From a virus, in IMG/VR virus record IMGVR_UViG_3300009537_000054, positions 1 to 41,748 of that record: a stretch of 41,748 nucleotides of DNA, one strand, 5' to 3'. The position numbers and the translations under genes are program-made. Of this stretch, positions 15,463-38,142 are shown in pieces. The notes beneath the pieces are model-generated. The model saw nothing but the letters and a program-made list of their open reading frames with translations, had not been told where the DNA came from and ran no database searches. The stretch's first letter is position 1; every line of letters starts with the position of its first letter.

Positions 15463-15980
15463 AAATTGTGAGACCCGATGCTGATCTCTGCCTGTAACAG
15501 CAGGAAGTCGCTCGCCGCCAATGTGGCGTTGACCGAATTGGTCAGGTTGTAGGCGATACCCTGTCCGCTGCTCGCATGATTCACACAGGCCGCTGAAGCC
15601 AATGCCACGCCGGTCAGGCCGTCGGTATTCCCTGCCCACGTCATGGCCAGAATCACCGTCATTTTCGACGTGGCGAGTGTTGCCGGTGCCTTGCGACTGA
15701 CTTCTCCGAATTGCAGGCCGGTGTTCCCCAAGGAGAAGGCGGTCGATACCGTGCCGATGGCCAGATACGCTATCCCGCTGGTGGTGACCCCGATGGCCCT
15801 TGATGCGAGCGCGTTCAGGCCGGTGGCGGTGACAATGTTCTTCGGGATGATGGTCTCGTCGATGGACCCATCCGCGCGCGTGATGCGCTTGCGCCACTTC
15901 ACGTTGAGCGGGATGCGGTCGTGTAGCGCGTCCTGGAATTCTGCCAGGAGGCGCGCTTCCTCAGTAATATTTGGATTCAT
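15459..15980 (-). CDS. Structural-module protein, possibly fibre/collar related
   Basis: 173 aa. The pattern IVTATGLNALASRAIG...IAYLAIGT...GNTGLQFGEVSRK is reminiscent of tail-collar fibre N-domains. This is a weak call. Confidence 0.35.
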   Translation of the reverse strand: MNPNITEEARLLAEFQDALHDRIPLNVKWRKRITRADGSIDETIIPKNIVTATGLNALASRAIGVTTSGIAYLAIGTVSTAFSLGNTGLQFGEVSRKAPATLATSKMTVILAMTWAGNTDGLTGVALASAACVNHASSGQGIAYNLTNSVNATLAASDFLLLQAEISIGSHNL

Positions 15981-18900
15981 AGTTTTGGGTCCTCTCTGTC
16001 ATGAGTTTCAGGAACAACTTTTCTGCGTGTTCGCGTGAGTAAAATCTGGCTGTGATGGGCGGCTGTCTCTCCGGGTGCGCCCCACCATTCAGCTTGCTGG
16101 CGTCCATCGTGAAACCGAAGTCGAAGCCCTCCCCGAGTATCTCCACGAGGGTTGAGTAGAAGCTCATATTGTCGGAATCGGTGATCATCCGCAGCTGGCC
16201 GGCGTCGAGCAGTTCACCCCAGATTGCTATCCCTGCCTTGGCGCGCTCGACCATGGCCTCGGTGACGTGCCCCCCGTTGGCCTCGGCTTCCCATCGGCAC
16301 ATCTGGGACAGGTCTCTTAACCACAGGAACTTCCCGAGGACGCGATCCGGGTACTTCTCCCGGTCCCTAACAAGCAGGCCGATGTTCCGCTCGAACCGTT
16401 TCCGGCGGACCTCTTCGGTGCTGTATCCGTAATGAGCGATGGTCACATCCCCCATGATGGTCGCGTGTCCGACGCCTTTGTTGATCTCGAGCTCAGGGTG
16501 TTCATGGACTACCCCGAAGAATTTGATGCCCTTACCATTACGGTAGAACCTTGATGGCAGGTCGGTTTTCATGATGCCAGCCGGCTCAACGCTGTAGTGA
16601 AGCTGCTTGATGGCATAAGCGTTGAACATATTCTCGCGGAGGTACTTCCTGACGTTCTCCGGGTGGAATAGCACCTCGTCGGCGTCGATCCAGAGTATCC
16701 AGTCGGCTTTAGCCTTGGCGGTACACTGATTCCTGGCCTCGTCGAATCCGATCTCCAAGGGTGATTTGATGTCGAACAGGAGGTCTTCCTTTGGAGAGAA
16801 CCCTTTGACGTACTTCGCCGCAATGGCCCGGGTCTCGTCCTTGGTGGTCTCGTCGACCGCGACAATGATCTCGCTGGCGATGTTCTTCACGGATTCCAGG
16901 CATCTGCCCAAGCTGTGCTCGGCGTCCTTGGCGATGATACAGACCGCGAGGGTTTGGCTCGGTGCCAGATATTTGAACTTTCGTGAATAGTCGATGCGCC
17001 CGCTTGGCTGGGTCGGCTTACCGAAAACCGCGATATAACTGCCGAGGGCGTCACCGTTCCGGTCTGTGCCTCCGGTGGCCAGGTTCACGTTAAACCCTGT
17101 GTGCATACCGAACAGGTCATGCAGGTCTTGTCTTTCAAGGTGATGGACGTGCGCCCTCCACGGCCAGTGTTCCCGGTAGCCTATCGCCTCCCAAGGGCCA
17201 AGTGGTGTGGTGGTGATAAACTTCCCGCCTTCCTTGAGGTACTTCCCGAGAGCATCGATCATCTCCCACGGTGCTTCGACGTGCTCAAGAACCTCGGCGA
17301 CGATGATGGCATCGAAGCTTTCTAGTGCAGGCGCTTCGTCGTCCCCGGCCACTTTAATAATGCCGACCTCAACGCTTCCGGTGATAAAAGTAGCGTTCCG
17401 TGTTCCGTCACTGTCAGCCCACTTTCGGGCTGTGGCGATATTGCTGGCGGCGATGTCGATTCCGATGAACTTGAGGTCTGGAAAGGCTTTCGCCAGATTG
17501 TTCGTATAGTGACCATGAGCGCACCCATAATCACAAACGACGCTACCAGCAGGGAGACTGCCAAGGTGACCGGCCACAGTAGCAAAACGGTTATTGTGCG
17601 TGCAATCTTCCGGCCCGTACTCAACTCCGCGCTGTTTCTCATAGTCGTAGTACCTCTCATAGTGTTCCTTCCAGGCGCGGTCGCGCGCGAAGGCGTAGCA
17701 CTCCTGCATCTCTTTCGCCGCGGTATTGTCCCCCGTGTGGTCGGTTGGGTGTTCTGCAGCGTACTTCTCGGCGGCGTAGTAGTCGCTCGTATGAATGAGG
17801 CTCTTTAAGACGGTCTCCGGGTTCTTCGTGCGTTCGGCGAACAGTTCTTCAATGTGCTTCTCGAAGCCCTCGGCGGCGATTGACCAGGCGAGCTTTACAC
17901 CAGCCCCGCGCTGTGCTGCGCGCATAACGTCAGGGCTAAGTAGCATGGGCCGCTCATCGCTATACTCCTCCGAAAATAAATCTACTACGGTTCCAACAAA
18001 AGACGCTTCATCGGCAACGCCGTTCTTTAGATTAATCAAATGCGAGCCGCTAAATTGGCACGTCTCAGGCAACGCACCAACGTGCGATGCGATGAACGGC
18101 AGGCCGGCTGCCATCGCTTCCATCGCCGTGATGCAGTTGTGGATAACGACTCCGCCAGCGATGAAATTATGCGTGCGTTCGACCTCCATATCGTACACAT
18201 CCTCATGTCCGCATGGCTCAACACTGACGACCTTGTGATTGAAGGCCGCACCCTTGGCCGCGAGGTTCGAGCGCTTCTTGGCAGCACGACTGTCGATCCA
18301 AGCCTGCCGCTCCTCTGGAGGCATGGCGTTGACCTTTTCCCACAGCTTGTCGCCGGCTTTACTTAGTGTCTGAATCCGCTCGGCACGGAAATCCGCATCG
18401 CCTTCCCATTTCTTGCGCCAGCCATTCACGTGTGCGCGCGCGGCATGCGGCGTCTTCACTAATCCACGGAACGTCTTCTTCGCGTGATCCGAAGGCGACA
18501 GCACTTGCAGGTTGTCCGGCATGTTGTTCAGCGGGTTCCCGTCGATATGATCGACGTGGTGGCCCTTCGGAATATCGCCATGGACGTATTCGGCGATGAC
18601 CCGATGCTCATGTGGCCAGCGGCCCGAACCGGTAGACACGGTAATCTGGGCATGCTTCTTCAGAGCCACCGCAGATTCGCCAGGCTGTAAGTCTTTCAAC
18701 TCGACCCAGCCGCGCTTGTACGTCAGCACCTTGTGGTCCGGAGTGGCACGCAGGCATGTCCCATCGTCCCAAAGGACCTTCCAGATTTCGCGATTCTTGC
18801 CTGTTTTTGCTACCCATTTCACCTGTGACAATATGAACTTCCCGTTTTCCTCGTCGTATGACCAGACAGGGAAACCGCTCTTGCCGACCAGTTCACTGAT

Positions 18901-19791
18901 CGGCACGCCGCGCGGGTACTTCGTATAATCACGCGGCATGTCGATGAGCGTATCGCCGACGCAACAGGAAACTTCTTCGAATTCAGAGGGGTACACAAGG
19001 GCATCACACTGCCTCATGGTGTCCGCCAACTGTTGCTTGGTCAGGCTACCCATGTTGGTGCAGTTCGGTAACTCCTCGATGCGCGAGTACAGATAGGCGT
19101 ACATATCCGCGAGGTGCGGCGGGTTGTTGTCGTAGTTACAGACATAGAGCCGGAAGCGCTTATCGATCTCCCAGAGCCTTTCCATGATCCCACCCGGGCG
19201 AACGTGGTGCGCCAATCCGCGCTCCGGTCGTGAGGTGTAGAGCAGGGCGATCTCGTCCTTAACTTTCGGCAGCTTGAATCGCGGTTTGCCTTGGAATAGG
19301 TTCAGGTCCACGCCGTTTGTCACGGTCTTAACGATCTCCGGAGCCAGTCCGTAGACCTCGCAGAGCTGTTTCTTGTGCCATTCACTGACACAGAATACCG
19401 CGTCGATATTCCAGAGGCCGGCGGCGATGGAGGGCTTCTGTCGGTGAAGGGCGAGGTCGTGCATCCAGGCGATATTCAGCTTGGCCTGGAACCTGTGGAC
19501 AAATGCGCCCGGCTGGCGCTGCATGATCAAGACGTCAGTCGGTGTGTTGCTGGCGTAGAAGTGAAACCGTTCCCCGAGGGGTGCCCGCTCGTTCAGGGGT
19601 CCTGCCCAGATGTATTTCACCCCGTCGAAGTTCCCCTCGTTCGGATCGTTGGTGAATATCGTTACCTTGTGTCCCCTGGCCGCGAGCTCCTTGGCGATGT
19701 AATAGGCCGCTGACTCGGATCCTCCGAGGGATTTGGTCTTGAGGGTGTCGCCGTTGAACGGCATGCCGCCACAATGAATGGTGATCAGCAT
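15961..19791 (-). CDS. GT4 glycosyltransferase (split by intein) / class I SAM methyltransferase / GT2 glycosyltransferase fusion protein
   Basis: 1276 aa. GT4 spans aa 1-275 plus 553-~650 (E-x7-E restored after intein removal, EAMAAGLPFIAS). MTase spans aa ~735-925 (VVCDYGCAHG, FDAIIVAEVLEHV; nt ~17017..17589). GT2 spans aa ~946-1135 (LAVCIIAKDAEHSL..., WILWIDADEV; nt ~16387..16956). Confidence 0.8.
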   Translation of the reverse strand: MLITIHCGGMPFNGDTLKTKSLGGSESAAYYIAKELAARGHKVTIFTNDPNEGNFDGVKYIWAGPLNERAPLGERFHFYASNTPTDVLIMQRQPGAFVHRFQAKLNIAWMHDLALHRQKPSIAAGLWNIDAVFCVSEWHKKQLCEVYGLAPEIVKTVTNGVDLNLFQGKPRFKLPKVKDEIALLYTSRPERGLAHHVRPGGIMERLWEIDKRFRLYVCNYDNNPPHLADMYAYLYSRIEELPNCTNMGSLTKQQLADTMRQCDALVYPSEFEEVSCCVGDTLIDMPRDYTKYPRGVPISELVGKSGFPVWSYDEENGKFILSQVKWVAKTGKNREIWKVLWDDGTCLRATPDHKVLTYKRGWVELKDLQPGESAVALKKHAQITVSTGSGRWPHEHRVIAEYVHGDIPKGHHVDHIDGNPLNNMPDNLQVLSPSDHAKKTFRGLVKTPHAARAHVNGWRKKWEGDADFRAERIQTLSKAGDKLWEKVNAMPPEERQAWIDSRAAKKRSNLAAKGAAFNHKVVSVEPCGHEDVYDMEVERTHNFIAGGVVIHNCITAMEAMAAGLPFIASHVGALPETCQFSGSHLINLKNGVADEASFVGTVVDLFSEEYSDERPMLLSPDVMRAAQRGAGVKLAWSIAAEGFEKHIEELFAERTKNPETVLKSLIHTSDYYAAEKYAAEHPTDHTGDNTAAKEMQECYAFARDRAWKEHYERYYDYEKQRGVEYGPEDCTHNNRFATVAGHLGSLPAGSVVCDYGCAHGHYTNNLAKAFPDLKFIGIDIAASNIATARKWADSDGTRNATFITGSVEVGIIKVAGDDEAPALESFDAIIVAEVLEHVEAPWEMIDALGKYLKEGGKFITTTPLGPWEAIGYREHWPWRAHVHHLERQDLHDLFGMHTGFNVNLATGGTDRNGDALGSYIAVFGKPTQPSGRIDYSRKFKYLAPSQTLAVCIIAKDAEHSLGRCLESVKNIASEIIVAVDETTKDETRAIAAKYVKGFSPKEDLLFDIKSPLEIGFDEARNQCTAKAKADWILWIDADEVLFHPENVRKYLRENMFNAYAIKQLHYSVEPAGIMKTDLPSRFYRNGKGIKFFGVVHEHPELEINKGVGHATIMGDVTIAHYGYSTEEVRRKRFERNIGLLVRDREKYPDRVLGKFLWLRDLSQMCRWEAEANGGHVTEAMVERAKAGIAIWGELLDAGQLRMITDSDNMSFYSTLVEILGEGFDFGFTMDASKLNGGAHPERQPPITARFYSREHAEKLFLKLMTERTQNYESKYY
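18136..18966 (-). mobile_element. Intein with HNH homing-endonuclease domain (277 aa, residues 276-552 of the host ORF)
   Basis: Begins CCVGDTLI, has the central motif HHVDHIDGNPLNNMPDNLQVLSPSDH, and ends GGVVIHN followed by Cys+1 (CITAMEAM). The codon positions were verified on the sequence. Confidence 0.8.
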
Positions 19792-21341: not shown

Positions 21342-21351
21342 TGAGTTCTCC

Positions 21352-22807: not shown

Positions 22808-25273
22808 TTATCCTCCGAATCCATCCATCGGCTCAATACTCGGGTCTGGTGATCGCTCCCAGGTATCGCGCACGGTGACGGCGATTAACAATGACCGGCA
22901 GTTATAGTGTAGCGGTGGCGTGTAGGTTTCCCAAATTGGATCATTCAGTTCGTAGATTTTCTGATCCATGTGCTCGCAGACTTCCGTTGTCCTGCTGTCG
23001 AGGATGGCGCTGTATTCAAGCGCCTCAACGAAGCCGTCCATCTCGGGTGACGCGAAGAACTCATACCGCGCCTCGTTGATGGCTTCAAAAACGGATGTCC
23101 TGATGGCTGTCGCGGCATGAGGTAGTACCGTGACGCCGAGTTCCTCTTCAACGCGGTTGAGTATTTCGTCGATGGTCCATCCGCCCTTGATGCCGTTGTA
23201 TAAGACGGTCGTGACCTTCTTCCGTGCGGCGTCGGCCAGATCTCCGGCGATGGTATAAGAACGTGACTCAAGGAACTTCTGAGCGGCCAGATCTGCCAGG
23301 CGCATCTCGTCGGCGGCGAATCTCCCGCCTTGTGCCTTCTCAAGTTCCCTGCGTGCATGATCTCCCCCTAAATCCCATCCTTCCTTGAGCCCAGCCTCAG
23401 CGGCTTTCCGCACACGAGTCAGTATTTTGGCCGGCATGCCGATGTCGGCGATCTTGTCGGGATTTTTGAACAGGTCCTCGGTACGGATGAATTCCTTCAT
23501 CGCGTCCACCCCGGCCCGTAGTGCTTCGGAGACTTTCGAGCTGGTCCGCCCGGTGATCTGCGTACCCCTATTGTCGATCACGGCGAAGTCCACGCGCTTG
23601 ACCGCGCGCGCGAGGAACTCTGCCTTGCGGTCTGACTTGATGCGCTTGGCCCCGATGACTGTTTCGCCCATGTCCGGCTTCTTGCCAGGCGGTTTGGTCG
23701 GCTGTTGTCCGGGTAGTGCCGGCGGTATCTGGGCTATGGGTGGAATGGGCTTCCCCGTGGCTGGGTCGATTGCGGCGCCCGGCAGCTCCCTGGGGAGTGC
23801 CTTTTCTGGTTTGTCGAGCGGTTCGCCTGCCTCGGGGAAGTCCAAAAGTTCGCGGATATGTTTCTCATCCGCATCGGTGGATGTGACGGCGTTGCCCTTT
23901 ACGAGCTCCAGCCACGTCTTGATGATCTGCATCTTGAGCGCTTCGCTTAACGGTTTGAACCGGAAGCGCGGGTATGGACCTGCCCCGAAGTTCAATTCAC
24001 CCAGGGGCTTGAATAGACCTTCGTTGAGAATTTCCTCAAGGCGCTTCGTTTCCGCTTCGAGGGTCCACAGGAATGCTTCGAGCTGGGTCTGTGATTGAGC
24101 GAAACTTCCCGTACTCCCTTGTTCGCTAATCCCCAACAGGTTCGGCACCAAAAGGGCTTTGGCGATTGATTTATCATGGACGGTGATGGCTTTTTCATAG
24201 GCGTCCGTAGTCGCTGGGTATATGAGTTCCGCGTCTATTCCCGATGGAAGTATTACCCCGGTCTTCGGGCTGAGGTTCTTAATGAAGTTGACCAGGGCGG
24301 TGTATTCAGCGCTGGATGCGTTGAGGGTCGTGCCTTCCTTCGGTTGGATCTTGAGGAAGCCCGATGCGTAGCGTTCAAGGAAGACGTTCCAGAAACGGAT
24401 TGCCATGTCCTTGCTGAACCAGGCTCGATAGGCTTCTCTCAGTTCACTCTGACCGTAATGCGGATCCACGTCCGAGTTCTGGACGTAGTGGATGAATCGG
24501 GACATGTCGATCTTTTGCTCACGTCCCTCGAATCGCTGGATGCAGTCCTTGATGTTGCCGTACTCATCCGGGACAAAGCGGAAGGTATCGAACGGCTTTA
24601 GGGCGAGGCGCTTTAATCCGACCCACGTCTTACCGCTGACCTCAATGTCCATCTGGACCTTCTCGGTCATCGAGAAACCGTACTGCATGGCGGTGGCTAT
24701 ACCGTTCAGGGAGTCGAAGAATGAGCCGTCCATCTGCTCAATGATCTGCTCGAAGACTCTGATACGCAGCTCCTGTTCATCGGTCAGCGCGCCCTTGTCC
24801 TCTTCCTCCAGGTCCTCGGGATTGGTGATATCCTCGTCATCTACTTCGTCTTTTTCCTCGTATTCCCCATCATTGTTCGGGTCTTCAATAGGCAGTCCCG
24901 TGATCGGGTCCATACCGTTTGCGTCGAACCTCGCCATCTTTGGCTTGACGATAGGGTTCTTGGTGCCGCCTTTAGCGGTGGGATCTTCGGTCTCGGTCTT
25001 GTTCGCTTCGAGGACGTCTTTGGCGTCGTACTCGAAGAACCAACGCCTACCGGTAATGGCGTCGCGTTTGAATCGGACGACGGCCTTCACCTGCTCGTCG
25101 GTCATCATGCGCCTATAGACGGCGGCGCCCTTGGTGTTGATGAGTTCGTCTGGGTTGTACTTCTGCCACGCACTGCGTGAGTAAATGAGCGACTCACTCC
25201 AGCCAGTCTCGCCTGATACTGCTTTGTTAAGCGCGCCTGTTTCTTCTGGCTTGCCTGCGAACCAACCTTTCAT
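22808..25273 (-). CDS. Portal protein (Mu gp29/DUF935-like) fused to a MuF/SPP1 gp7-like head morphogenesis domain
   Basis: 821 aa from ATG 25273 (ATGA overlap; the ORF track used TTG 25285). N-terminal motif YRRMMTDEQVKAVVRFKRDAITGRRW. C-terminal motif TYTPPLHYNCRSLLIAV is typical of MuF domains. Confidence 0.8.
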   Translation of the reverse strand: MKGWFAGKPEETGALNKAVSGETGWSESLIYSRSAWQKYNPDELINTKGAAVYRRMMTDEQVKAVVRFKRDAITGRRWFFEYDAKDVLEANKTETEDPTAKGGTKNPIVKPKMARFDANGMDPITGLPIEDPNNDGEYEEKDEVDDEDITNPEDLEEEDKGALTDEQELRIRVFEQIIEQMDGSFFDSLNGIATAMQYGFSMTEKVQMDIEVSGKTWVGLKRLALKPFDTFRFVPDEYGNIKDCIQRFEGREQKIDMSRFIHYVQNSDVDPHYGQSELREAYRAWFSKDMAIRFWNVFLERYASGFLKIQPKEGTTLNASSAEYTALVNFIKNLSPKTGVILPSGIDAELIYPATTDAYEKAITVHDKSIAKALLVPNLLGISEQGSTGSFAQSQTQLEAFLWTLEAETKRLEEILNEGLFKPLGELNFGAGPYPRFRFKPLSEALKMQIIKTWLELVKGNAVTSTDADEKHIRELLDFPEAGEPLDKPEKALPRELPGAAIDPATGKPIPPIAQIPPALPGQQPTKPPGKKPDMGETVIGAKRIKSDRKAEFLARAVKRVDFAVIDNRGTQITGRTSSKVSEALRAGVDAMKEFIRTEDLFKNPDKIADIGMPAKILTRVRKAAEAGLKEGWDLGGDHARRELEKAQGGRFAADEMRLADLAAQKFLESRSYTIAGDLADAARKKVTTVLYNGIKGGWTIDEILNRVEEELGVTVLPHAATAIRTSVFEAINEARYEFFASPEMDGFVEALEYSAILDSRTTEVCEHMDQKIYELNDPIWETYTPPLHYNCRSLLIAVTVRDTWERSPDPSIEPMDGFGG

Positions 25274-25497
25274 TTTTTCGAGCAAGTGTTTTCTCCCCAG
25301 CGCACTTGGATATCGAGCCCACGCACTGATTTAACCACGCTTCCGGTCGCCGCGCATAATTGAATATAGCAGCTTCGGCTCATGGTGATTGAGGTTGGTC
25401 GTTCATCGTGTTCGGCAATGTATGCCGCCTTGGCCTTATCGACTTGGTTGAGCCAGTCGATCATGTACTCGGATAAATCATGCTCACCAGTTTTCAC
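25270..25497 (-). CDS. Small protein between terminase and portal
   Basis: 75 aa with a GTG start (an alternative ATG lies at 25464). ATGA-coupled to the portal gene. Confidence 0.45.
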   Translation of the reverse strand: MKTGEHDLSEYMIDWLNQVDKAKAAYIAEHDERPTSITMSRSCYIQLCAATGSVVKSVRGLDIQVRWGENTCSKK

Positions 25498-26716
25498 CGG
25501 CCGACTCCATTTCGCCTATTGCGACCATATCGCCGCTCAATATTTTTGACCTGATGATTGGTTCAAGAGCGTAGCGTATCGCATCCCAGCAGTGCTCATT
25601 TCCGTCTTTCACCACCGGCAGTACATCTCCGCTGAGTCTGTCTGTCTTGTATGACCACAGTCGGGCTTCTTCGGCAGTGTGTTTGCATCTCGGATGGATG
25701 ATGATTTCTTCATAACTGCGGATATGGGCGATGCCGTCCTCGACGCTGCCCTTCCATTTGTCTACGCCTATGATTCTAGGGTAGCCGTGATTCCTGAGGT
25801 AGCTAATGGTCTCCGGGCGGGCGTTGTCGCCTCGGATGGTGTGATCTCTCGATCCTGGTATTACTGAAAATCTGTCGGGCAGATCGTTCATTTCAATTCC
25901 CACACCGAAGACCTCTGCTTCAATCAGTAGCCTCTTCTGGTATATCCAGCATTTAATCAGTGTAGTCGGGTCAACGCTAAATCCCCAATCTGCCCCGAAG
26001 TATGGACCATCCCACACATCTACGATAGGCTCGAATGGCTCGATCTTGTATTTGCCGTGAAGTATTTGCGCGTCGCTGAATCGTCGCGGTGCGCCCTCCC
26101 ATATCCATTCATACGCATCTGGATTGACGCGCGCCATATAATCCTTCTCTCTACGCAGTTCCGTGGATAGCCAAGGGTTATCACGCCAGCTTACCTTCCG
26201 CACGATTGACCCAGGCGGTGGATTCACCACCATGCGTTTGTATGTCGGATCGGATTCGTCACGCGTGTTGAAGCTGACCCATATCTCAGATCCCTCATTA
26301 CGGATCGTCGGTATGAGAATATCCCAAGACGACGCGCTAACCAGTTCCGCCTCTTCCACCCAGCAGATGTCTATGCCCTCGGTGGATTTGATCTCCTGGA
26401 TATTATGATGCAGGCCCTTGAACAGGACTTGGGCGCCGATGCGGCTGGTGATGCTGTCCCTGGTAATCATGAAGGCGTCTGACAGCCCAAGCCTGGAGAT
26501 GGTATCCGACAGGAGTCTATGAACTGAATCCGCGATGCTGTTCTGGTATTCGCGAGTACACAAGACGCGAGCTGGGCGCTTGAGCATCTCCATCACAAGA
26601 GCGATAGCCATGCTCCACGACTTCGCGGAACCACGGCCTCCGTAGTAGACCTTGTAACGTGCTGGCTTGAACAGTTCCTGAAAGGCTTCCGGGAGGTGAA
26701 CCGTGACTGCGTTCAC
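25484..26716 (-). CDS. terL: Terminase large subunit (PBSX/terminase_3-like)
   Basis: 410 aa. Walker A-like motif YYGGRGSAKSWS, Walker B-like motif ICWVEEAE, and a C-terminal nuclease region. GTG start overlaps the terS stop (GTGA). Confidence 0.85.
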   Translation of the reverse strand: MNAVTVHLPEAFQELFKPARYKVYYGGRGSAKSWSMAIALVMEMLKRPARVLCTREYQNSIADSVHRLLSDTISRLGLSDAFMITRDSITSRIGAQVLFKGLHHNIQEIKSTEGIDICWVEEAELVSASSWDILIPTIRNEGSEIWVSFNTRDESDPTYKRMVVNPPPGSIVRKVSWRDNPWLSTELRREKDYMARVNPDAYEWIWEGAPRRFSDAQILHGKYKIEPFEPIVDVWDGPYFGADWGFSVDPTTLIKCWIYQKRLLIEAEVFGVGIEMNDLPDRFSVIPGSRDHTIRGDNARPETISYLRNHGYPRIIGVDKWKGSVEDGIAHIRSYEEIIIHPRCKHTAEEARLWSYKTDRLSGDVLPVVKDGNEHCWDAIRYALEPIIRSKILSGDMVAIGEMESAGENW

Positions 26717-27124: not shown

Positions 27125-27796
27125 TTACGCCGGAACCTCATGGTGGCAACTCGGACAAAGCGAGTAAGGCACGCTATCCATCTGACTGATGTTCTCATCC
27201 ACGGTCCCGAGCTTTCCGGTTCCGCCTCCGTCGAAGCAACAGGTCAGAACGTCTCCATTGCTCCCGATCATCGCCCATCCGTTCTGCAGCCACGGGCAGA
27301 CTTCTCTGACGGGTGTGCTCACTTCCCATTTAACCTGGCCTGCCCAGTCTACCGCTGAGATACTCGGGTCTGCCGAGATGCCGGCGAGGACTCCATATTT
27401 CTTGAGCAGGTTAACGGTTGGCCCGGCTTTCTCGGGTCGATGCAGTGATACCCAGACTCGCATCTGTGCGTAACGCATCGCCAAGGCGTGATCCTCTGTT
27501 ACGCCGACGCCGTTTGTTGCGAGGATCAGGTGACGCTTGTTTCCTATGGCTTCCCTCGCCTCAAGGCACCACTCCCCGAATTCAGGATGCATGGTGCTTT
27601 CACCGATCCCGCAGAGGTTGAGTTCCTGGCCTTGGGTGTTGTCTTCACAGAAGCGACTTACCCATCCGATTGCTTTTTCCCAAGTGCCCCGGCTCATGTG
27701 TTCCTTGGTTCTGGCCATTGTCGGGTGGACGCAATATCGGCATCGCAAGTTGCATCGACTGGTCATCTCGATCTGGTGGATGCTCTGGATTTTCAT
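27125..27796 (-). CDS. Radical SAM enzyme with C-terminal Cys-rich (twitch/SPASM-like) region, paralogue 1
   Basis: 223 aa from ATG 27796 (ATGA overlap). CNLRCRYC matches C-x3-C-x2-C. The C-terminus reads C...GWAMIGSNGDVLTCC...LGTV...LCPSCH. Confidence 0.75.
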   Translation of the reverse strand: MKIQSIHQIEMTSRCNLRCRYCVHPTMARTKEHMSRGTWEKAIGWVSRFCEDNTQGQELNLCGIGESTMHPEFGEWCLEAREAIGNKRHLILATNGVGVTEDHALAMRYAQMRVWVSLHRPEKAGPTVNLLKKYGVLAGISADPSISAVDWAGQVKWEVSTPVREVCPWLQNGWAMIGSNGDVLTCCFDGGGTGKLGTVDENISQMDSVPYSLCPSCHHEVPA

Positions 27797-28188
27797 GCAG
27801 TTACATTTACCGTAGCCGAAAAAGGTATTGGATGGCGTTCTGATGCTTTTGCTAGCAGAATCATCCACGCCTCACACCGTGCATCTTCCATCATGTCGTT
27901 CAATAGTTCCCGTCTATATTTTCTATACGGAGGCCATGTGTGCGGGAGGTACCCATCTTTAATTGACTTCGTTATTGCTGCAAGTTTGCCCAAAGGGTGA
28001 TCTTCGTAGAACTTATCTACTCCGAGCATATTCCATTTGAAATACGGTTTACGTTCTTTTCGTAATGATCTCCAGAACAGTTTACGCCTCAAGGCAGGCA
28101 ATGTGTGTAGTAACTTAGCAAGGTCTGCTGCGATAGCTTTGTACACAACCAACGCCTCTGGACTCTGTACGGAGGCCCATTCGCTCAT
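27793..28188 (-). CDS. Hypothetical protein inside the radical-SAM cassette
   Basis: 131 aa from ATG 28188, with ATGA overlaps on both sides. Basic and aromatic-rich, with no motif recognised. Confidence 0.55.
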   Translation of the reverse strand: MSEWASVQSPEALVVYKAIAADLAKLLHTLPALRRKLFWRSLRKERKPYFKWNMLGVDKFYEDHPLGKLAAITKSIKDGYLPHTWPPYRKYRRELLNDMMEDARCEAWMILLAKASERHPIPFSATVNVTA

Positions 28189-28361
28189 GGCGTCACCTTC
28201 ACGCACGATAGAGACGTCTGTGGCGCGCGATCATCGTAGTAGCAAATCACCCCGTACTGATCTTGTGGGTAGTGGTTCAGGTACGGATAACCGTAGTCTG
28301 ATGCTTCTGTTCCGCATCCTAGCAGGGCTATGGTTGCGATTAATGCGAGCGTGGTTTTCAT
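28185..28361 (-). CDS. Small lipoprotein / exported Tyr- and Cys-rich peptide (58 aa)
   Basis: ATG 28361 overlaps the rSAM-2 stop (ATGA). MKTTLALIATIALLGC has a classic L-L-G-C lipobox. The mature 42 aa contain 7 Tyr and 2 further Cys. Confidence 0.6.
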   Translation of the reverse strand: MKTTLALIATIALLGCGTEASDYGYPYLNHYPQDQYGVICYYDDRAPQTSLSCVKVTP

Positions 28362-29008
28362 GTTGGGACCCTCAAGTGGCACTTCGCACAAAGCGGGATC
28401 GGGTTCATCTCTGTCGGTTTGTTCGTATCATTCACGTTTCCTATGGGATAGAGGCCGTGGGCATCCATGCAACAATTAACGATGTCACCGTTCTGCAGGA
28501 CGGTTGCCCAACCCTGTGCTAAATATTGGCAGTCGTGTTCTGGCGCCAAGTTCGCCCATGTGACTTGCCCTGCCCAATCGAAGCCGCTGCTGACGAACTG
28601 GTGATTGACTTGAACCTTAATGCCGAGCTTCAAGCATCTGTCTACCGCCGGCCCCGCGACCTCTGGCCGGTGTGCGCTGACGTAGACTGTCGCGTCTACT
28701 TCCTTGATGGCTTTCAGGGCCTCATCTTTCAAAGCGATGCCGTTGGTAGCCAAGAGTATCCACGTCTCCGGCAGATAGGCCCTGGCGGTTCTGATCATCT
28801 CCGGGAATTCCGGGTGAAGTACCGCTTCGCCCATGCCGGTAAGAGATAGCTCTGGGCCTCCCAGCTGGCGCGTCCATCTGAGTGCGTTCTCGAAGGTCTC
28901 CTGATCCATGTCTTCCTTTGGCCTTTGGAGCTTCGGGTGTGGGCAATAACGGCAGGAAAGATTGCACCGTGATGATATTTCTATCTGATGGACGGTTGTT
29001 ATTCTCAT
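28358..29008 (-). CDS. Radical SAM enzyme with C-terminal Cys-rich (twitch/SPASM-like) region, paralogue 2
   Basis: 216 aa. It has CNLSCRYC and is colinear with paralogue 1 throughout (HQIE(M/I)(T/S)SRCNL..., HPEF, LATNG, HRPE.AGP, DWAGQV.W, NGD(V/I)..CC, LC..CH). Confidence 0.75.
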   Translation of the reverse strand: MRITTVHQIEISSRCNLSCRYCPHPKLQRPKEDMDQETFENALRWTRQLGGPELSLTGMGEAVLHPEFPEMIRTARAYLPETWILLATNGIALKDEALKAIKEVDATVYVSAHRPEVAGPAVDRCLKLGIKVQVNHQFVSSGFDWAGQVTWANLAPEHDCQYLAQGWATVLQNGDIVNCCMDAHGLYPIGNVNDTNKPTEMNPIPLCAKCHLRVPT

Positions 29009-29022
29009 GGTTTTGACTTTAG

Positions 29023-29424
29023 TCAGAATTTTATACTAAGCCCCACCCTGTCATTGTGGATGACCACACCAGCCTCAACGGCGATGCCTCCCAACTGAAA
29101 ATATGGACGCCAGTCGGCTGGCATTAGATGCACGGCAAGCACATGGGCGGCACGGGTGGTGATTATGAATGTTTTAATGCGCTTATCCGAAGGATGCCTT
29201 CCAAGGATTGGATTCGCCTCGTGTACGTCCTTTTTGTTCTTCATGTCCAGGGTTTGCCCGAGATCGACAACGCTCAACCCGATGTATAGGGCCTCCCTGA
29301 TGACATCAGGCTTTGACCAGGGATCGTGCGCACAGCCTGTGCATGTCACTAATATCAGCATGAGGCTCAGGAGTAAGCCTGGGAATATCCACCAACCGCT
29401 AGGCCAGTTCTCGTTGTTTTTCAT
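29023..29424 (-). CDS. Exported protein, possible lipoprotein, with a beta-signal-like C-terminus (…RVGLSIKF)
   Basis: Start reset to ATG 29424 (GAGGAG RBS). The N-terminus WWIFPGLLLSLMLILVTCTGC is hydrophobic with Cys. The protein ends in Phe. Confidence 0.5.
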   Translation of the reverse strand: MKNNENWPSGWWIFPGLLLSLMLILVTCTGCAHDPWSKPDVIREALYIGLSVVDLGQTLDMKNKKDVHEANPILGRHPSDKRIKTFIITTRAAHVLAVHLMPADWRPYFQLGGIAVEAGVVIHNDRVGLSIKF

Positions 29425-29506
29425 GGTGTGCTCCTCAATATCCATTAGTTGTACTGCTGATTATTGTTCTCTTATCGTTACATAATGTCCAGTCTTTTCT
29501 TACTTA

Positions 29507-29722
29507 TTATGTGGTTTTCCGTTTGTGGCTGTCCTTATATCGTTTCCGTGATTCTTTCCGGCAGGCCCTACACTGACGCTCCCCCTTGCTCCCCAGTACG
29601 GTGTTTTCAGGCGTGTACTCGTGACCGTGTGGGCAGTGGGTTTTTGCCCGTTGGCGCTCGCCGTTTTTCAGACCACCGAGTCGGCCTGTTGCTTTTGGGT
29701 CTGTGGTGACTGGGTTCACCAT
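29507..29722 (-). CDS. Small basic Zn-ribbon-like protein
   Basis: 71 aa with HCPHGH...CRAC and a Lys/Arg-rich tail. Confidence 0.45.
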   Translation of the reverse strand: MVNPVTTDPKATGRLGGLKNGERQRAKTHCPHGHEYTPENTVLGSKGERQCRACRKESRKRYKDSHKRKTT

Positions 29723-29994
29723 GCTGACCTGAGTAATGTATCTATGGCTGTTACCTCTGGCTTCGATTTCTGTTTCCTTTTTGTGCCTACATATCGTCCG
29801 TGTTTCAGTGCTCGTTGATTTCCCATTAATGCAGTCCTATATCCGCCGTTCTTCCCGTTCGGATATTTGCGCCGCCACTCTTCCCGGCGTTGTTTGGCGA
29901 TGCAGGTCTTGCAGTAGAAGCACAGGCCGTCTTTTGTGCTTTTATTGCGGTAGAAGTTTTCTTCGCCGGTGGTGCCGCAGGAACAGGTTTTCAT
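29716..29994 (-). CDS. Small basic Cys4 protein (putative DNA-binding)
   Basis: Start reset to ATG 29994 (ATGA overlap). CSC...CFYCKTC, then a GNQRALKHG motif. Confidence 0.45.
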   Translation of the reverse strand: MKTCSCGTTGEENFYRNKSTKDGLCFYCKTCIAKQRREEWRRKYPNGKNGGYRTALMGNQRALKHGRYVGTKRKQKSKPEVTAIDTLLRSAW

Positions 29995-30416
29995 TTCTTC
30001 TTCCTGATCGGTCGCCAGTACCAAGTGCCGTACAGTTTCATCTCCCCGAGGAAGGCACCGCAGAGTTTATCGTCCGGCACAAGCAGCCATTCCGCTTTCC
30101 CTTTGGCGATCTGTTCGCTGACCCCCAGCTTGTTTGTGTAGGGCATGACTTTCCAGCCGCGCTCGTTCTTGACTCGGGCCTGGTTCTCGTTGGTCGAGTA
30201 GTCGGTGGCCTTGTAACAATCACCGCCGCTTGGCGGTCCCTGTTCTTGCGGGTCGATCCCGCCGGCATACGCTGGACTCAGATACCAGACCAGAAGGGCG
30301 AGTACGATGATGTCGAAAATTATCCAGCCTATCCAGAATCTCAGGCTGTCCTTTTCCTCAAAAGGGTTCCTTGTCGATAACGACGTTCTCGGGTAGAAAC
30401 TTTTGCGTGGTTTCAT
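29991..30416 (-). CDS. Signal-anchored membrane protein
   Basis: 141 aa with one TM segment (FWIGWIIFDIIVLALLVWYL). Confidence 0.5.
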   Translation of the reverse strand: MKPRKSFYPRTSLSTRNPFEEKDSLRFWIGWIIFDIIVLALLVWYLSPAYAGGIDPQEQGPPSGGDCYKATDYSTNENQARVKNERGWKVMPYTNKLGVSEQIAKGKAEWLLVPDDKLCGAFLGEMKLYGTWYWRPIRKKK

Positions 30417-30840
30417 GTCGATCCTTTGGCTTTCCTGCTCTGTTGATGTAGTCGGCCTTGAACTTCTGCATCTGACGTTTCAGGTCTTGGTGTAATAATT
30501 CCTTTTCAGCCCGCGTTGTCTTGAATGGTTTACGTGCCCGGTATTCCAGAATGGTGACGGCTCTCTCACCGATCCGTTTTACTTTCCATGCCCGGTACTC
30601 CGCTGCCTCGCTCCCGAGGTAGGTATGGCAACCGGCACACAATGCGTCGCAATTATCAGGGTCATGCCTTATCGCCAAGTGTTTACGGCTCTTGTAGTGT
30701 GAGCATTGGAGGCTGGCGGTTGGTGGTGTGTACCGCTTGAAACACCGCTGACACGTCCAGTCATCTCGATACCTCACCAGGTCGGAAACCGTCTTGTCTA
30801 TTGGCGTGCGTTTAATGCCCCATGCCATGTTAGTAGTCAC
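30358..30840 (-). CDS. NinG/Rap-like recombination endonuclease
   Basis: The pattern RYRDDWTCQRC...CSHYKSRKHLAIRHDPDNCDALCAGCH...RIGERAVTILE parallels the lambda NinG C-terminal half. The start is ambiguous (TTG 30843, GTG 30840 with GTGA overlap, or ATG 30828). Confidence 0.55.
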   Translation of the reverse strand: MTTNMAWGIKRTPIDKTVSDLVRYRDDWTCQRCFKRYTPPTASLQCSHYKSRKHLAIRHDPDNCDALCAGCHTYLGSEAAEYRAWKVKRIGERAVTILEYRARKPFKTTRAEKELLHQDLKRQMQKFKADYINRAGKPKDRHETTQKFLPENVVIDKEPF

Positions 30841-31163
30841 CAATCATCGGAAGTACGCATATCACTTGTTGGCAACATGAACGGACGCATATTGTCTATG
30901 ATCTCGTCAAACGGTTTGCCAGTACTGGTGTTAATCTCCCAAGCTGCGGCCCACTGGCGCGGACTCATCAATCGCGCCGTATCGTACCTTTCAGCGGCCA
31001 GTCGCAATTCGGCCAGTTGCTCCTTTGCCAATGGGTGCTCTGCCGCCACATCATCCAAGTCTAAGTGCGTGCCCATAGTCACTCCTGTTGCCCAACAATT
31101 CACTCCAGCAGTTCCATCGTTATCAAATCGTTTCACATTCCCGCCCGCTTGTCTATCCCTCAT
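30837..31163 (-). CDS. Hypothetical early protein
   Basis: The start is ambiguous: ATG 31163 (overlaps the upstream stop) or ATG 31076 (strong AGGAG RBS). Confidence 0.4.
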   Translation of the reverse strand: MRDRQAGGNVKRFDNDGTAGVNCWATGVTMGTHLDLDDVAAEHPLAKEQLAELRLAAERYDTARLMSPRQWAAAWEINTSTGKPFDEIIDNMRPFMLPTSDMRTSDDW

Positions 31164-36614: not shown

Positions 36615-36646
36615 GGTGGCTCTCCGTGTCGGTTGGTACTGTAACG

Positions 36647-36675
36647 ATTGAACGACAATTCACGGCAAAGGTCAA
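36647..36675 (-). promoter_or_regulatory. Candidate leftward early promoter (TTGACC - 17 nt - TTCAAT)
   Basis: Read on the minus strand in the 161-nt divergent intergenic region. It is bracketed by an 8-bp inverted repeat TGTAACGA (36640..36647) / TCGTTACA (36677..36684). Confidence 0.35.
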
Positions 36676-36712
36676 GTCGTTACAAATATTTATTTTTACC
36701 CCTATTTTTCCC

Positions 36713-36742
36713 TTGCTTTTATGCCTTTTCTCGGTTTACTAT
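36713..36742 (+). promoter_or_regulatory. Candidate rightward early promoter (TTGCTT - 18 nt - TACTAT)
   Basis: Plus strand, ~34 nt upstream of the erf start codon. The match is weak. Confidence 0.25.
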
Positions 36743-36775
36743 CGTTTCTCTACACACGCACATGAGGAGCATTTA

Positions 36776-37519
36776 ATGTCTAATTCTGCTAATTTGTTGC
36801 CCACTACCGCCGCTGAGGTTGATCTGGTAGCAACTCCTACACCGATGACCATGATCCAGATAGCCATACAGCACGGCGCTTCTGTAGACGTGCTAAAGAA
36901 TCTATGGGATCTGCAAGTCCAATGGGAAGCACACGAGGCGCGTAAGGCTTACGTCGTGGCAATGAATGCGTTCAAAGCCAACCCGCCGATTGTCATCAAG
37001 GACATGCTCAATAAACAATATGATTCTCGGTATTCTTCTCTGGCCAATTTCGTCAACACGGTAAACCCGGAGCTGAGTAAGTTCGGCCTCTCTGCATGCT
37101 GGCGTCCTGATCAGACAAATGGGATTAGTGTCACCTGCGTGGTAACACACGCTCAGGGACACAGCGAGTCGGCGACTTTGTCCGGCCCTCCAGACGACTC
37201 TGGGAAAAAGAATCCACTACAGCAGATAAAATCAACAATCACTTATCTCGAAGGTGCGACGTTCCAAGCCATCACCGGGATGGTTGCCTCTGATGGATCG
37301 GATGATGACGGGAATGGTGCAGGAACAACGGAAGTAATCACCACAGATCAGTGCATCGTCATAAACGATCTGCTCACCGAAACAAAAAAGCCCAAGGAAA
37401 AGTTTCTCGAACAGTTCAAGTTTGAGAGTCTTGAATCAATCCCGGCGTCTGAGTACGAACGGGTTCTTCTGGCACTGAATGAGCGAAAGGCCAAGATGGC
37501 GAAGAGGGCGCAGTCATGA
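36776..37519 (+). CDS. erf: ERF-family single-strand annealing protein
   Basis: Start reset to ATG 36776 (GAGGAG RBS). The pattern ...NKQYDSRYSSLANFVNTVNPELSKFGLS...VTCVVTHAQGHSES...PLQQIKSTITYLEGATFQAITGM...DDDG parallels P22 Erf. Confidence 0.65.
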   Translation: MSNSANLLPTTAAEVDLVATPTPMTMIQIAIQHGASVDVLKNLWDLQVQWEAHEARKAYVVAMNAFKANPPIVIKDMLNKQYDSRYSSLANFVNTVNPELSKFGLSACWRPDQTNGISVTCVVTHAQGHSESATLSGPPDDSGKKNPLQQIKSTITYLEGATFQAITGMVASDGSDDDGNGAGTTEVITTDQCIVINDLLTETKKPKEKFLEQFKFESLESIPASEYERVLLALNERKAKMAKRAQS

Positions 37520-38142
37520 TTATCCATGACGTTATACAGGGGAATCCCGAGTGGTTCGCTCTACGGGCAGGGAAGCCGACGGCCTCTGAGTTTTCCAAAC
37601 TTGTCACCAGCACTGGAGAGGTGTCGAAGTCGTTATCCGGTTATGCCATTACGTTGGCCGGCGAACTGTACTCAGGTAAACCATTGGATGCGTGGGAGGG
37701 GAATTCTCACACTGACCGAGGGAAGCTTCTGGAAGGCGATGCGCGGACAATGTATGCATTCCTGAATGACACCGAACTTACGCAGGTCGGGTTTGTAACC
37801 GACGACGAAGGGCTTTATGGATGTTCTCCTGATAGCCTCATCGGAGATGATGGCGGCTTGGAAATAAAAGCACTCAAGGCAGAGAATCATATCAAGGCAA
37901 TCCTGTACTACAGGAAACATAGCCGATGCCCGCCCGACTACATCCAACAGGCGCAGGGAAACATCATGGTGTGTGAGCGGGAATGGTGGGATGTGTTCTT
38001 CTACCACCCTGACCTCCCACGTCTGACGGTCCGTATCAATCGCTCTGATTCACTGATCACCGCCATGCGGGAACAGATTAAAAACGTGATTGCGGAACGT
38101 GATGAAATTCTGGAAGAGTTAGGACAGATCATCAAGGGGTAA
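37516..38142 (+). CDS. YqaJ-like / lambda-exonuclease-like recombination exonuclease
   Basis: 208 aa. N-terminus QGNPEWFALRAGKPTASEFSKL and a PD-(D/E)XK-like core GCSPDSLIGDDGGLEIKALK. ATGA overlap with erf. Confidence 0.65.
   Translation: MIIHDVIQGNPEWFALRAGKPTASEFSKLVTSTGEVSKSLSGYAITLAGELYSGKPLDAWEGNSHTDRGKLLEGDARTMYAFLNDTELTQVGFVTDDEGLYGCSPDSLIGDDGGLEIKALKAENHIKAILYYRKHSRCPPDYIQQAQGNIMVCEREWWDVFFYHPDLPRLTVRINRSDSLITAMREQIKNVIAERDEILEELGQIIKG

Follow-up and report, generated by a model that had tools for sequence, protein, structure and literature searches.

The IMG/VR virus record IMGVR_UViG_3300009537_000054 (41,748 nucleotides, analyzed at its full length and called the window below) carries four overlapping genes on the minus strand at positions 27,125 to 29,008. 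The two outer genes are predicted with high confidence to encode minimal BtrN-like twitch radical S-adenosylmethionine (radical-SAM) enzymes of ~220 amino acids (aa), each with one auxiliary cluster ligated entirely by cysteines. The radical-SAM gene itself is the conserved unit in related loci, either as one copy or as a pair of an A and a B paralog. We tentatively read these enzymes, at slightly less than an even chance, as an optional part of a phage glycosylation module, in which they would tailor a virion glycan, or the sugar precursor of it, by radical chemistry. The module would center on a GT4-methyltransferase-GT2 protein (GT, glycosyltransferase) that is encoded just after the capsid gene. 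The four genes are:

28358..29008, minus strand: rSAM-A, 216 aa, A-clade BtrN-like twitch radical-SAM enzyme
28185..28361, minus strand: lipoprotein-like ORFan, 58 aa, window-specific cargo between the paralogs
27793..28188, minus strand: basic ORFan, 131 aa, cargo of foreign composition
27125..27796, minus strand: rSAM-B, 223 aa, B-clade paralog with the same cluster motifs

The outer genes are predicted to encode minimal twitch radical-SAM enzymes

rSAM-A and rSAM-B are 40% identical over their full length (BLASTP, E 2e-59), which bears out an earlier preliminary description, made from the letters of the window, that called them paralogs. The radical-SAM motif that it recognized is equally sound: both proteins score above the PF04055 cut-off (49.2 bits for rSAM-A and 40.7 bits for rSAM-B, cut-off 29.5), and a CX3CX2C motif lies at C15/C19/C22 in rSAM-A and at the equivalent positions in rSAM-B. 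The C-terminal region had been described as twitch/SPASM-like. The twitch assignment stands, with four cysteines and the fold of BtrN, and the SPASM assignment does not, as PF13186 remains below threshold (15.1 and 15.9 bits versus 21.5). We therefore rejected a SPASM domain proper (PF13186/TIGR04085, with seven cysteines and two auxiliary clusters), because only four to five C-terminal cysteines are conserved. Over 36 aligned members, the invariant or near-invariant cysteines are C15/C19/C22, C160, C179 (C180), C207, and C210, and rSAM-B retains every one of them. The same alignment contains the family motifs HQIE, GxGE, TNG, S-HRPE, and DWAGQV.

The AlphaFold (AF2) model of rSAM-A is confident, with a predicted local distance difference test score (pLDDT) of 94.4. 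Its top Foldseek match in the PDB is BtrN (4m7t; E 3.9e-11, template-modeling (TM) score 0.72, 209 columns), and the E value of this match is five orders of magnitude ahead of the next. Weaker matches (E ~1e-5 to 1e-6) include SkfB, ChlB, SuiB, viperins, anSME, and SpeY, and also EpeE. A fold search of BFVD returned generic viral radical-SAM proteins only. A profile of the family also matches BtrN (E 5e-12) over positions 4-202, a range that includes the first two twitch cysteines. In this alignment C179 is paired with the cysteine of BtrN 'LPCFED', presumably an auxiliary-cluster ligand, and C160 falls one residue off BtrN 'SCMV'; the BtrN ligands are numbered as in the 2013 structure paper. 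In the AF2 model the barrel begins at residue 5 and the chain stops right after the twitch, leaving no place for a leader-peptide recognition domain. Indeed, neither the model nor Pfam revealed on the enzymes a PqqD-like recognition element (RRE) of ribosomally synthesized and post-translationally modified peptide (RiPP) systems, or any other leader-binding domain. These are the shortest twitch-type enzymes that we encountered in this analysis.

We compared both proteins with the well-known radical-SAM classes and rejected each of them: MoaA (43 bits versus a cut-off of 284), viperin (30-34 bits versus 180), NrdG (18.5 bits for the NrdG2 model versus 131), anSME (21.6 bits versus 349), and QueE (15-19 bits for a QueE-like PHROG). 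The preliminary description had named QueE and NrdG as the assignments that would undo its view, and these scores, far below the cut-offs, do not bear out such an assignment. Its remark that the usual partners are missing also holds, as we found no QueC/D, FolE, DpdA, NrdD, or other base-modification partner among the ~45 open reading frames (ORFs) of the window that were scanned. The best NCBIfam matches are confined to the N-terminal cluster region and are far under their cut-offs; the top partial matches are metalloenzyme maturases (tungsten-cofactor maturase, 63 versus 380). The PHROG matches of the enzymes are to generic radical-SAM families only.

The public gene calls shorten both enzymes and so hide the radical-SAM motif. 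They start at internal methionines and give proteins of 183 aa and 197 aa (the 183-aa call for rSAM-A, P0001, begins at M34). The truncated public proteins carry no precomputed Pfam annotation because the internal starts remove CX3CX2C. The 2181-bp contig L240 (1-2181; JGI sample 3300009514) is 100% identical to window positions 29104-27119, across the four genes, and its gene calls likewise start the radical-SAM genes internally. Alignment of the homologs favors the longer starts.

The radical-SAM gene defines a small family with two clades

In a metagenomic protein collection we found ~90 homologs with 35-66% identity, none of them informatively named, and when 1.84 billion representatives (50% identity) were scanned exhaustively with HMMER, only 120 reached E<=1e-30; at E<=1e-10 the proteins number about 2,900. 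IMG/VR holds 109 radical-SAM stretches. Profile-guided scans led to 78 IMG/VR loci and about a dozen loci in metagenome-assembled genomes with true family members, and the members lie mostly on phage contigs. Cultured phage genomes, searched at the nucleotide and the protein level, contained no relatives except a 26%-identical hypothetical protein of Vibrio phage KarBoss, whose context is uninformative. We found no description of the family in the literature on phage, capsid, or glycosylation radical SAM, twitch, or BtrN. The family is thus small, uncharacterized, and undescribed in the literature that we searched; to this extent the preliminary description was correct in announcing something undescribed.

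A tree and hidden Markov model (HMM) classification divide the family into two old clades, A and B. Approximately half of the loci have two copies and half have one. When two copies are present they are almost always one A and one B (33 of 35 pairs), in either order (22 AB, 11 BA), and the single-copy loci comprise 19 A and 28 B. Because the pairs combine both clades and each clade also occurs singly, the A and B paralogs have distinct roles without forming an obligate heterodimer.

Some relatives have an insertion that splits their radical-SAM gene (P0106, 630 aa; P0115, 394 aa); in P0106 a LAGLIDADG intein-type domain lies between the N-terminal motif and the remaining enzyme. A Rosetta-stone search of long members revealed no recurring partner domain: it yielded two intein-interrupted genes and one fusion to a Leu/Phe-transferase-like domain. 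We rejected the long stop-to-stop ORFs around some homologs as domain fusions; they are read-through artifacts of high GC content.

The genes between the paralogs are unrelated cargo

The preliminary description saw in the four genes a translationally coupled cassette and proposed a RiPP-like system, in which the radical-SAM enzyme or enzymes would modify the Tyr/Cys-rich 58-aa peptide before its export and lipidation, with the 131-aa protein as a helper. The genes, their coordinates, and the three ATGA stop/start overlaps that join all four on the minus strand are as it stated. The 58-aa ORF is plausibly coding, since codon usage favors its annotated frame over the other five (score 0.10, like the neighboring genes). 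It starts MKTTLALIATIALLGC, by inspection a signal sequence that ends in the lipobox LLGC; with an MK n-region, a TTLALIATIA h-region, and this lipobox, the product is a predicted lipoprotein, as had been proposed. Cys and Tyr are abundant in the peptide, and twitch/SPASM enzymes are often peptide modifiers. The coupling, the coding frame, and these last two points speak for the RiPP-like system, which we nevertheless consider very improbable on the following evidence.

First, the two middle genes are ORFans. A search of 5.8 billion protein clusters returned no match for either product but itself, and neither these proteins nor the 140-aa protein encoded upstream of rSAM-A have homologs in 159 related loci. 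The survey of co-occurrence that the preliminary description called for thus shows that only the radical-SAM gene or genes are conserved, and the small ORF, whose conservation in relatives its hypothesis needed, is confined to the window. Second, the content of the gap varies. In relatives the radical-SAM genes overlap directly, have unrelated cargo between them, or occur as a single copy; the cargo is an FkbM-family methyltransferase and a class I methyltransferase in L067, L068, L072, and L073, and assorted small ORFs in the gaps of other relatives. Third, the enzymes lack an RRE domain. Fourth, the 131-aa gene has a G+C content at third codon positions (GC3) of 0.43, versus 0.62-0.66 in the flanking genes, which marks it as compositionally foreign. 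Its annotated frame is the best of six with a codon score of 0.008, and a single-sequence AF2 model of its product is all-helical and unusable (pLDDT 46).

Finally, the coupling is not particular to these genes. The overlaps are real, but 4-bp overlaps are found at at least seven other same-strand junctions in the window (2858/2855, 3487/3484, 7527/7524, 12062/12059, 13248/13245, 26716/26713, and 37519/37516). Such overlaps are a general habit of this genome and no mark of a cassette.

Because the middle genes are ORFans and the gap content differs among relatives, the four-gene cassette is not a conserved unit, and the junction between the paralogs is an insertion hot spot. The 58-aa and 131-aa genes would have landed at this hot spot and would merely be co-transcribed. 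The eye-catching lipopeptide is thus unrelated cargo and no RiPP precursor. It probably acts at the host envelope, in exclusion or in lysis, perhaps as an Rz1-like o-spanin, and not as a substrate. The only hint of a family for it is a weak PHROG match to Rz-like spanins (E 0.082); no endolysin, holin, or spanin was recognizable among the scanned ORFs of the window.

The radical-SAM genes travel with a head module and a GT4-methyltransferase-GT2 fusion

We wondered which genes accompany the family. Three genes of the window are central here:

22808..25285, minus strand: portal-MuF fusion (Pfam Portal_Mu and Phage_Mu_F), a marker of the radical-SAM-carrying phage lineage
20373..21458, minus strand: major capsid protein (PHROG 1005 major head protein, E 1.4e-51; weak Pfam Phage_cap_E)
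15961..19791, minus strand: GT4-methyltransferase-GT2 fusion, 1276 aa (Pfam Glyco_transf_4, Methyltransf_23/31, Glycos_transf_2)

The true start of the capsid protein is probably the ATG near 21344. Gene clustering gave the order of the head module as terL, portal-MuF, a protease-like gene, a small scaffold-like gene, the major capsid gene, the GT fusion (~1000 aa), and connector and tail genes. Homologs of portal-MuF are present in 60 of the related loci. The module belongs to an uncultured siphovirus lineage, in which the GT fusion is always encoded after the capsid gene. The slot taken by the radical-SAM gene, one of three or four, varies: after the portal gene, after the capsid gene, or after the GT fusion, and before terS in the window. 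Of 84 radical-SAM loci, 53 have a member of the GT fusion family, and the rest are mostly truncated. In the divergent loci L086, L087, L082, and L031/L033, whose backbone is no longer detectably similar, the radical-SAM gene directly follows the GT fusion.

The GT fusion is by far the more widespread of the two, being found on 515 IMG/VR stretches versus 109 for the radical-SAM gene. At 21 of 52 long loci anchored on the GT fusion, a radical-SAM gene lies within 10 kb. This is a lower bound, as some copies are across contig ends or elsewhere on the contig (e.g., L006/L168 and L034/L192). Since the fusion is so much more common and nothing else tracks the presence of the radical-SAM gene, the radical-SAM enzyme is an optional accessory of GT-fusion-carrying phages.

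The best PDB sequence matches of the GT2 domain (residues ~640-865) are GmaR (1.8e-19) and ThuS/SunS (~1e-10), and the NCBIfam SunS-family model scores 55.6 bits on the fusion. This similarity points to protein glycosylation. With GT4 and GT2 domains in one 1276-aa protein, the window thus has a phage-encoded glycosyltransferase, and a virion glycan is predicted; we infer only that the capsid protein is a candidate target. No full-length match to the GT fusion was found in cultured phage genomes.

The GT4 domain is interrupted by an HNH intein at window positions ~18136-18906 on the minus strand (Intein_splicing at aa 296-552, HNH_3 at aa 396-437); homologs of ~975-1050 aa are free of it. In phages that lack the radical-SAM gene (L178/L179, about 8391-9740; L216-L218), two tandem copies of a class I methyltransferase of ~225 aa lie between the capsid gene and the GT fusion, and the same methyltransferase family lies between the radical-SAM paralogs in other phages. 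As one family occurs in both kinds of slot, the slots of the head module seem to gather glycan-type tailoring genes in general.

A possible role in glycan tailoring and its alternatives

How might the radical-SAM enzymes act? In the reading that we favor, each enzyme would cleave SAM reductively to form a 5'-deoxyadenosyl radical. This radical would take a hydrogen from a sugar carbon, either on a nucleotide-sugar precursor or on a glycan that is already attached to a virion protein. The auxiliary cluster would then accept a second electron, leaving an oxidized (keto) or epimerized sugar. Passage of an electron to the auxiliary cluster is established for BtrN. The A and B paralogs would perform two different steps of this kind, and the outcome would be a diversified glycan on the virion surface. 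We prefer glycan chemistry to peptide cross-linking because the partner is a GT4-methyltransferase-GT2 protein and because the closest fold is that of a sugar/cyclitol dehydrogenase. The second option of the preliminary description, a substrate among other nearby proteins, may nevertheless hold. A more specific proposal, that an uncultured siphovirus lineage employs one or two minimal twitch enzymes together with the GT fusion to build an oxidized or epimerized, methylated capsid glycan, is, in our judgment, a little less probable still.

Several observations weigh against glycan tailoring. The phage loci all come from a single syntenic lineage, and the linkage of the radical-SAM gene and the GT fusion may therefore reflect phylogenetic hitch-hiking. 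At 31 of the 52 long GT-fusion loci a radical-SAM gene is absent over a distance of 10 kb, from which it follows that the GT fusion works on its own. We searched the 52 GT-anchored loci for gene families that track the presence of the radical-SAM gene, and none does so module-wide: only an FkbM methyltransferase of a sub-lineage and the terminase type emerged. In the window itself, the radical-SAM genes are 7.3 kb from the GT fusion and upstream of terS, and there is no nucleotide-sugar synthesis gene among the scanned ORFs. Elsewhere the gene adjoins DNA polymerase III alpha (L022), a primase-like gene (L034), or a DNA methylase (L076). Lastly, identity to BtrN is only 19%, and the fold does not fix the class of substrate, because twitch enzymes include peptide modifiers such as SkfB. 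The proposed link between radical-SAM enzymes and virion glycosylation has so far been drawn from genomic association and fold similarity.

Alternatively, the enzymes could modify virion proteins directly and independently of the GT fusion, through anSME-like oxidation of Ser or Cys, a thioether or C-C cross-link, or epimerization in the capsid, scaffold, portal-MuF, or decoration protein. The genes lie inside the head-morphogenesis module at most loci, SkfB, ChlB, SuiB, anSME, and EpeE are among the Foldseek matches (E ~1e-5 to 1e-6), and the top partial NCBIfam matches are metalloenzyme maturases. However, the best structural match by far is BtrN, a small-molecule enzyme, and the phage enzymes have no RRE or other substrate-docking domain. 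Moreover, the same families of head proteins occur with and without the gene, so that no target tracks the enzyme, and the distant cellular members are found in sugar or glycan clusters with no adjoining target protein. We therefore regard direct modification of virion proteins as unlikely, though by no means negligible.

A third possibility is that the substrate is a nucleotide, DNA, or a metabolite, for hypermodification, anti-defense, or reprogramming of the host, and that the head module is simply a convenient insertion site that is expressed late. The few loci that adjoin genes for DNA polymerase III alpha, a primase-like protein, or a DNA N6/N4 methylase would fit this idea, as would the presence of viperin-like enzymes among the fold matches. 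The gene also behaves as mobile cargo at hot spots. Contig L240 diverges completely from the window 6 bp past the rSAM-B stop codon and has a different gene there instead of terS; the divergence suggests a recombination junction or mosaic variant, the other explanation being an assembly chimera. On the other side, the QueE, NrdG, MoaA, and viperin scores of 18-43 bits stand against cut-offs of 131-284, the window has no deazaguanine or base-modification partner genes that we could find, and glycan enzymes are present in most contexts. On balance, we give a nucleotide or metabolite substrate only a small chance.

Contexts outside the main phage lineage speak for glycan tailoring. The distant members retain all hallmark residues and are found in cellular or other gene clusters of a glycan type. 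In a Myxococcota locus (L089), a sugar nucleotidyltransferase/aminotransferase fusion, a methyltransferase, and a GT1 protein are encoded nearby; in Methanosarcinales (L088), the neighbors are GT9, PMT_2, and an aldo-keto reductase; in Parabeggiatoa (L093), they are a lipid-A-type acyltransferase and a second radical-SAM/SPASM gene. An FkbM methyltransferase is close to P0197. P0229 is a radical-SAM fusion of 642 aa, with GT1+PIG-L and Acetyltransf_6 proteins encoded after it. In L242/L243 (3625-8677), a distant member is fused to a Leu/Phe-tRNA-protein-transferase-like domain and followed by GT1+PIG-L and Acetyltransf_6 (FemAB-like) proteins; these genes may form a separate cassette for glycan or aminoacyl tailoring on another phage-like contig.

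Should glycan tailoring be correct, this would be, as far as we found, the first case in which radical-SAM chemistry serves specifically to modify virus particles, and these would be the smallest known twitch enzymes, offering a compact scaffold for C-H activation on sugars. The association suggests that some environmental phages diversify their virion glycan coat by radical chemistry. Such a coat could influence host recognition, stability, and the evasion of defenses.

The transcription unit and its surroundings

The transcription unit is not limited to the four genes. It extends upstream into a gene for a 140-aa membrane protein and downstream into terS/terL:

29023..29445, minus strand: 140-aa ORFan with one N-terminal hydrophobic segment
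26713..27024, minus strand: terS, assigned by its position and its 4-bp overlap with terL
25484..26716, minus strand: terL (Pfam Terminase_3, Terminase_3C)

The gap between the end of the 140-aa gene and rSAM-A is 14 bp, and terS starts 100 bp downstream of rSAM-B. The cassette of the preliminary description is thus part of a longer operon. Scans around the four genes remained at chance level and gave no convincing promoter or terminator inside the unit. The 140-aa protein has zero Pfam, PHROG, and NCBIfam matches; its hydrophobic segment, WWIFPGLLLSLMLILVTCTGC, possibly contains a second lipobox.

Further upstream, three nuclease-type genes are found in a row, an arrangement that is typical of the lambdoid nin region:

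29507-30843, minus strand: nuclease row, with a 71-aa HNH fragment, a 102-aa endonuclease VII/HNH-like protein, and a 161-aa NinG/Rap-like protein

Coding switches strand near 36 kb, with ERF-family and YqaJ-like recombination genes on the plus strand (36626-38142), and the GC and AT skews flip sign around the same ~36-kb region.

Comparison with known systems

BtrN, the 2-deoxy-scyllo-inosamine (DOIA) dehydrogenase of butirosin (4m7s/4m7t), is likewise very short, with an abridged barrel, a C-terminal twitch, and a four-Cys auxiliary pattern of similar spacing. It differs in length (250 aa versus 216-223 aa) and shares only 18-19% identity with the phage enzymes. The phage family is located in head modules with no aminoglycoside cluster nearby, and it has motifs of its own (HQIE, DWAGQV, and CC-D) and frequent A/B pairing. 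Given this identity and the context of a phage head and packaging module, we rejected an orthologous DOIA dehydrogenase. SpeY (7wzv), which acts on a sugar or cyclitol, has the twitch radical-SAM fold in common with the family; it is larger (~300 aa) and a much weaker match (E ~1e-5, TM ~0.5).

SkfB, anSME, SuiB, CteB, and EpeE combine a radical-SAM core with a C-terminal auxiliary-cluster domain, as does the phage family. The SPASM/twitch maturases, however, have 320-450 aa, and most have an RRE or other N-terminal domain and two auxiliary clusters, whereas the phage enzymes have a single auxiliary-cluster motif, lack additional domains, and are accompanied by no conserved precursor gene. What is known of radical-SAM enzymes in phages concerns chiefly nucleotide pathways (QueE, NrdG) and viperin-like proteins, and this family belongs to neither.

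On the glycosylation side, GmaR is the flagellin O-GlcNAc transferase of Listeria, and SunS/ThuS are peptide S-glycosyltransferases; all of them glycosylate proteins or peptides. The phage fusion differs by its extra GT4 and methyltransferase domains, and the SunS score of its GT2 domain is far under the equivalog cut-off of 350. The capsids of mycobacteriophages Che8 and Rita carry glycans, and phage-encoded glycosyltransferases are thought or have been shown to decorate their capsid proteins (Freeman et al. 2023, as cited in PMC11256854). In the uncultured lineage described here, glycosylation is predicted, and the GT genes are fused (GT4-MT-GT2, where MT is methyltransferase) and directly follow the capsid gene. 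No radical-SAM component was apparent in the mycobacteriophage account that we consulted. Taken together, these comparisons make the family a novelty among two established kinds, twitch radical-SAM enzymes and phage glycosylation modules, and not a categorically new system.

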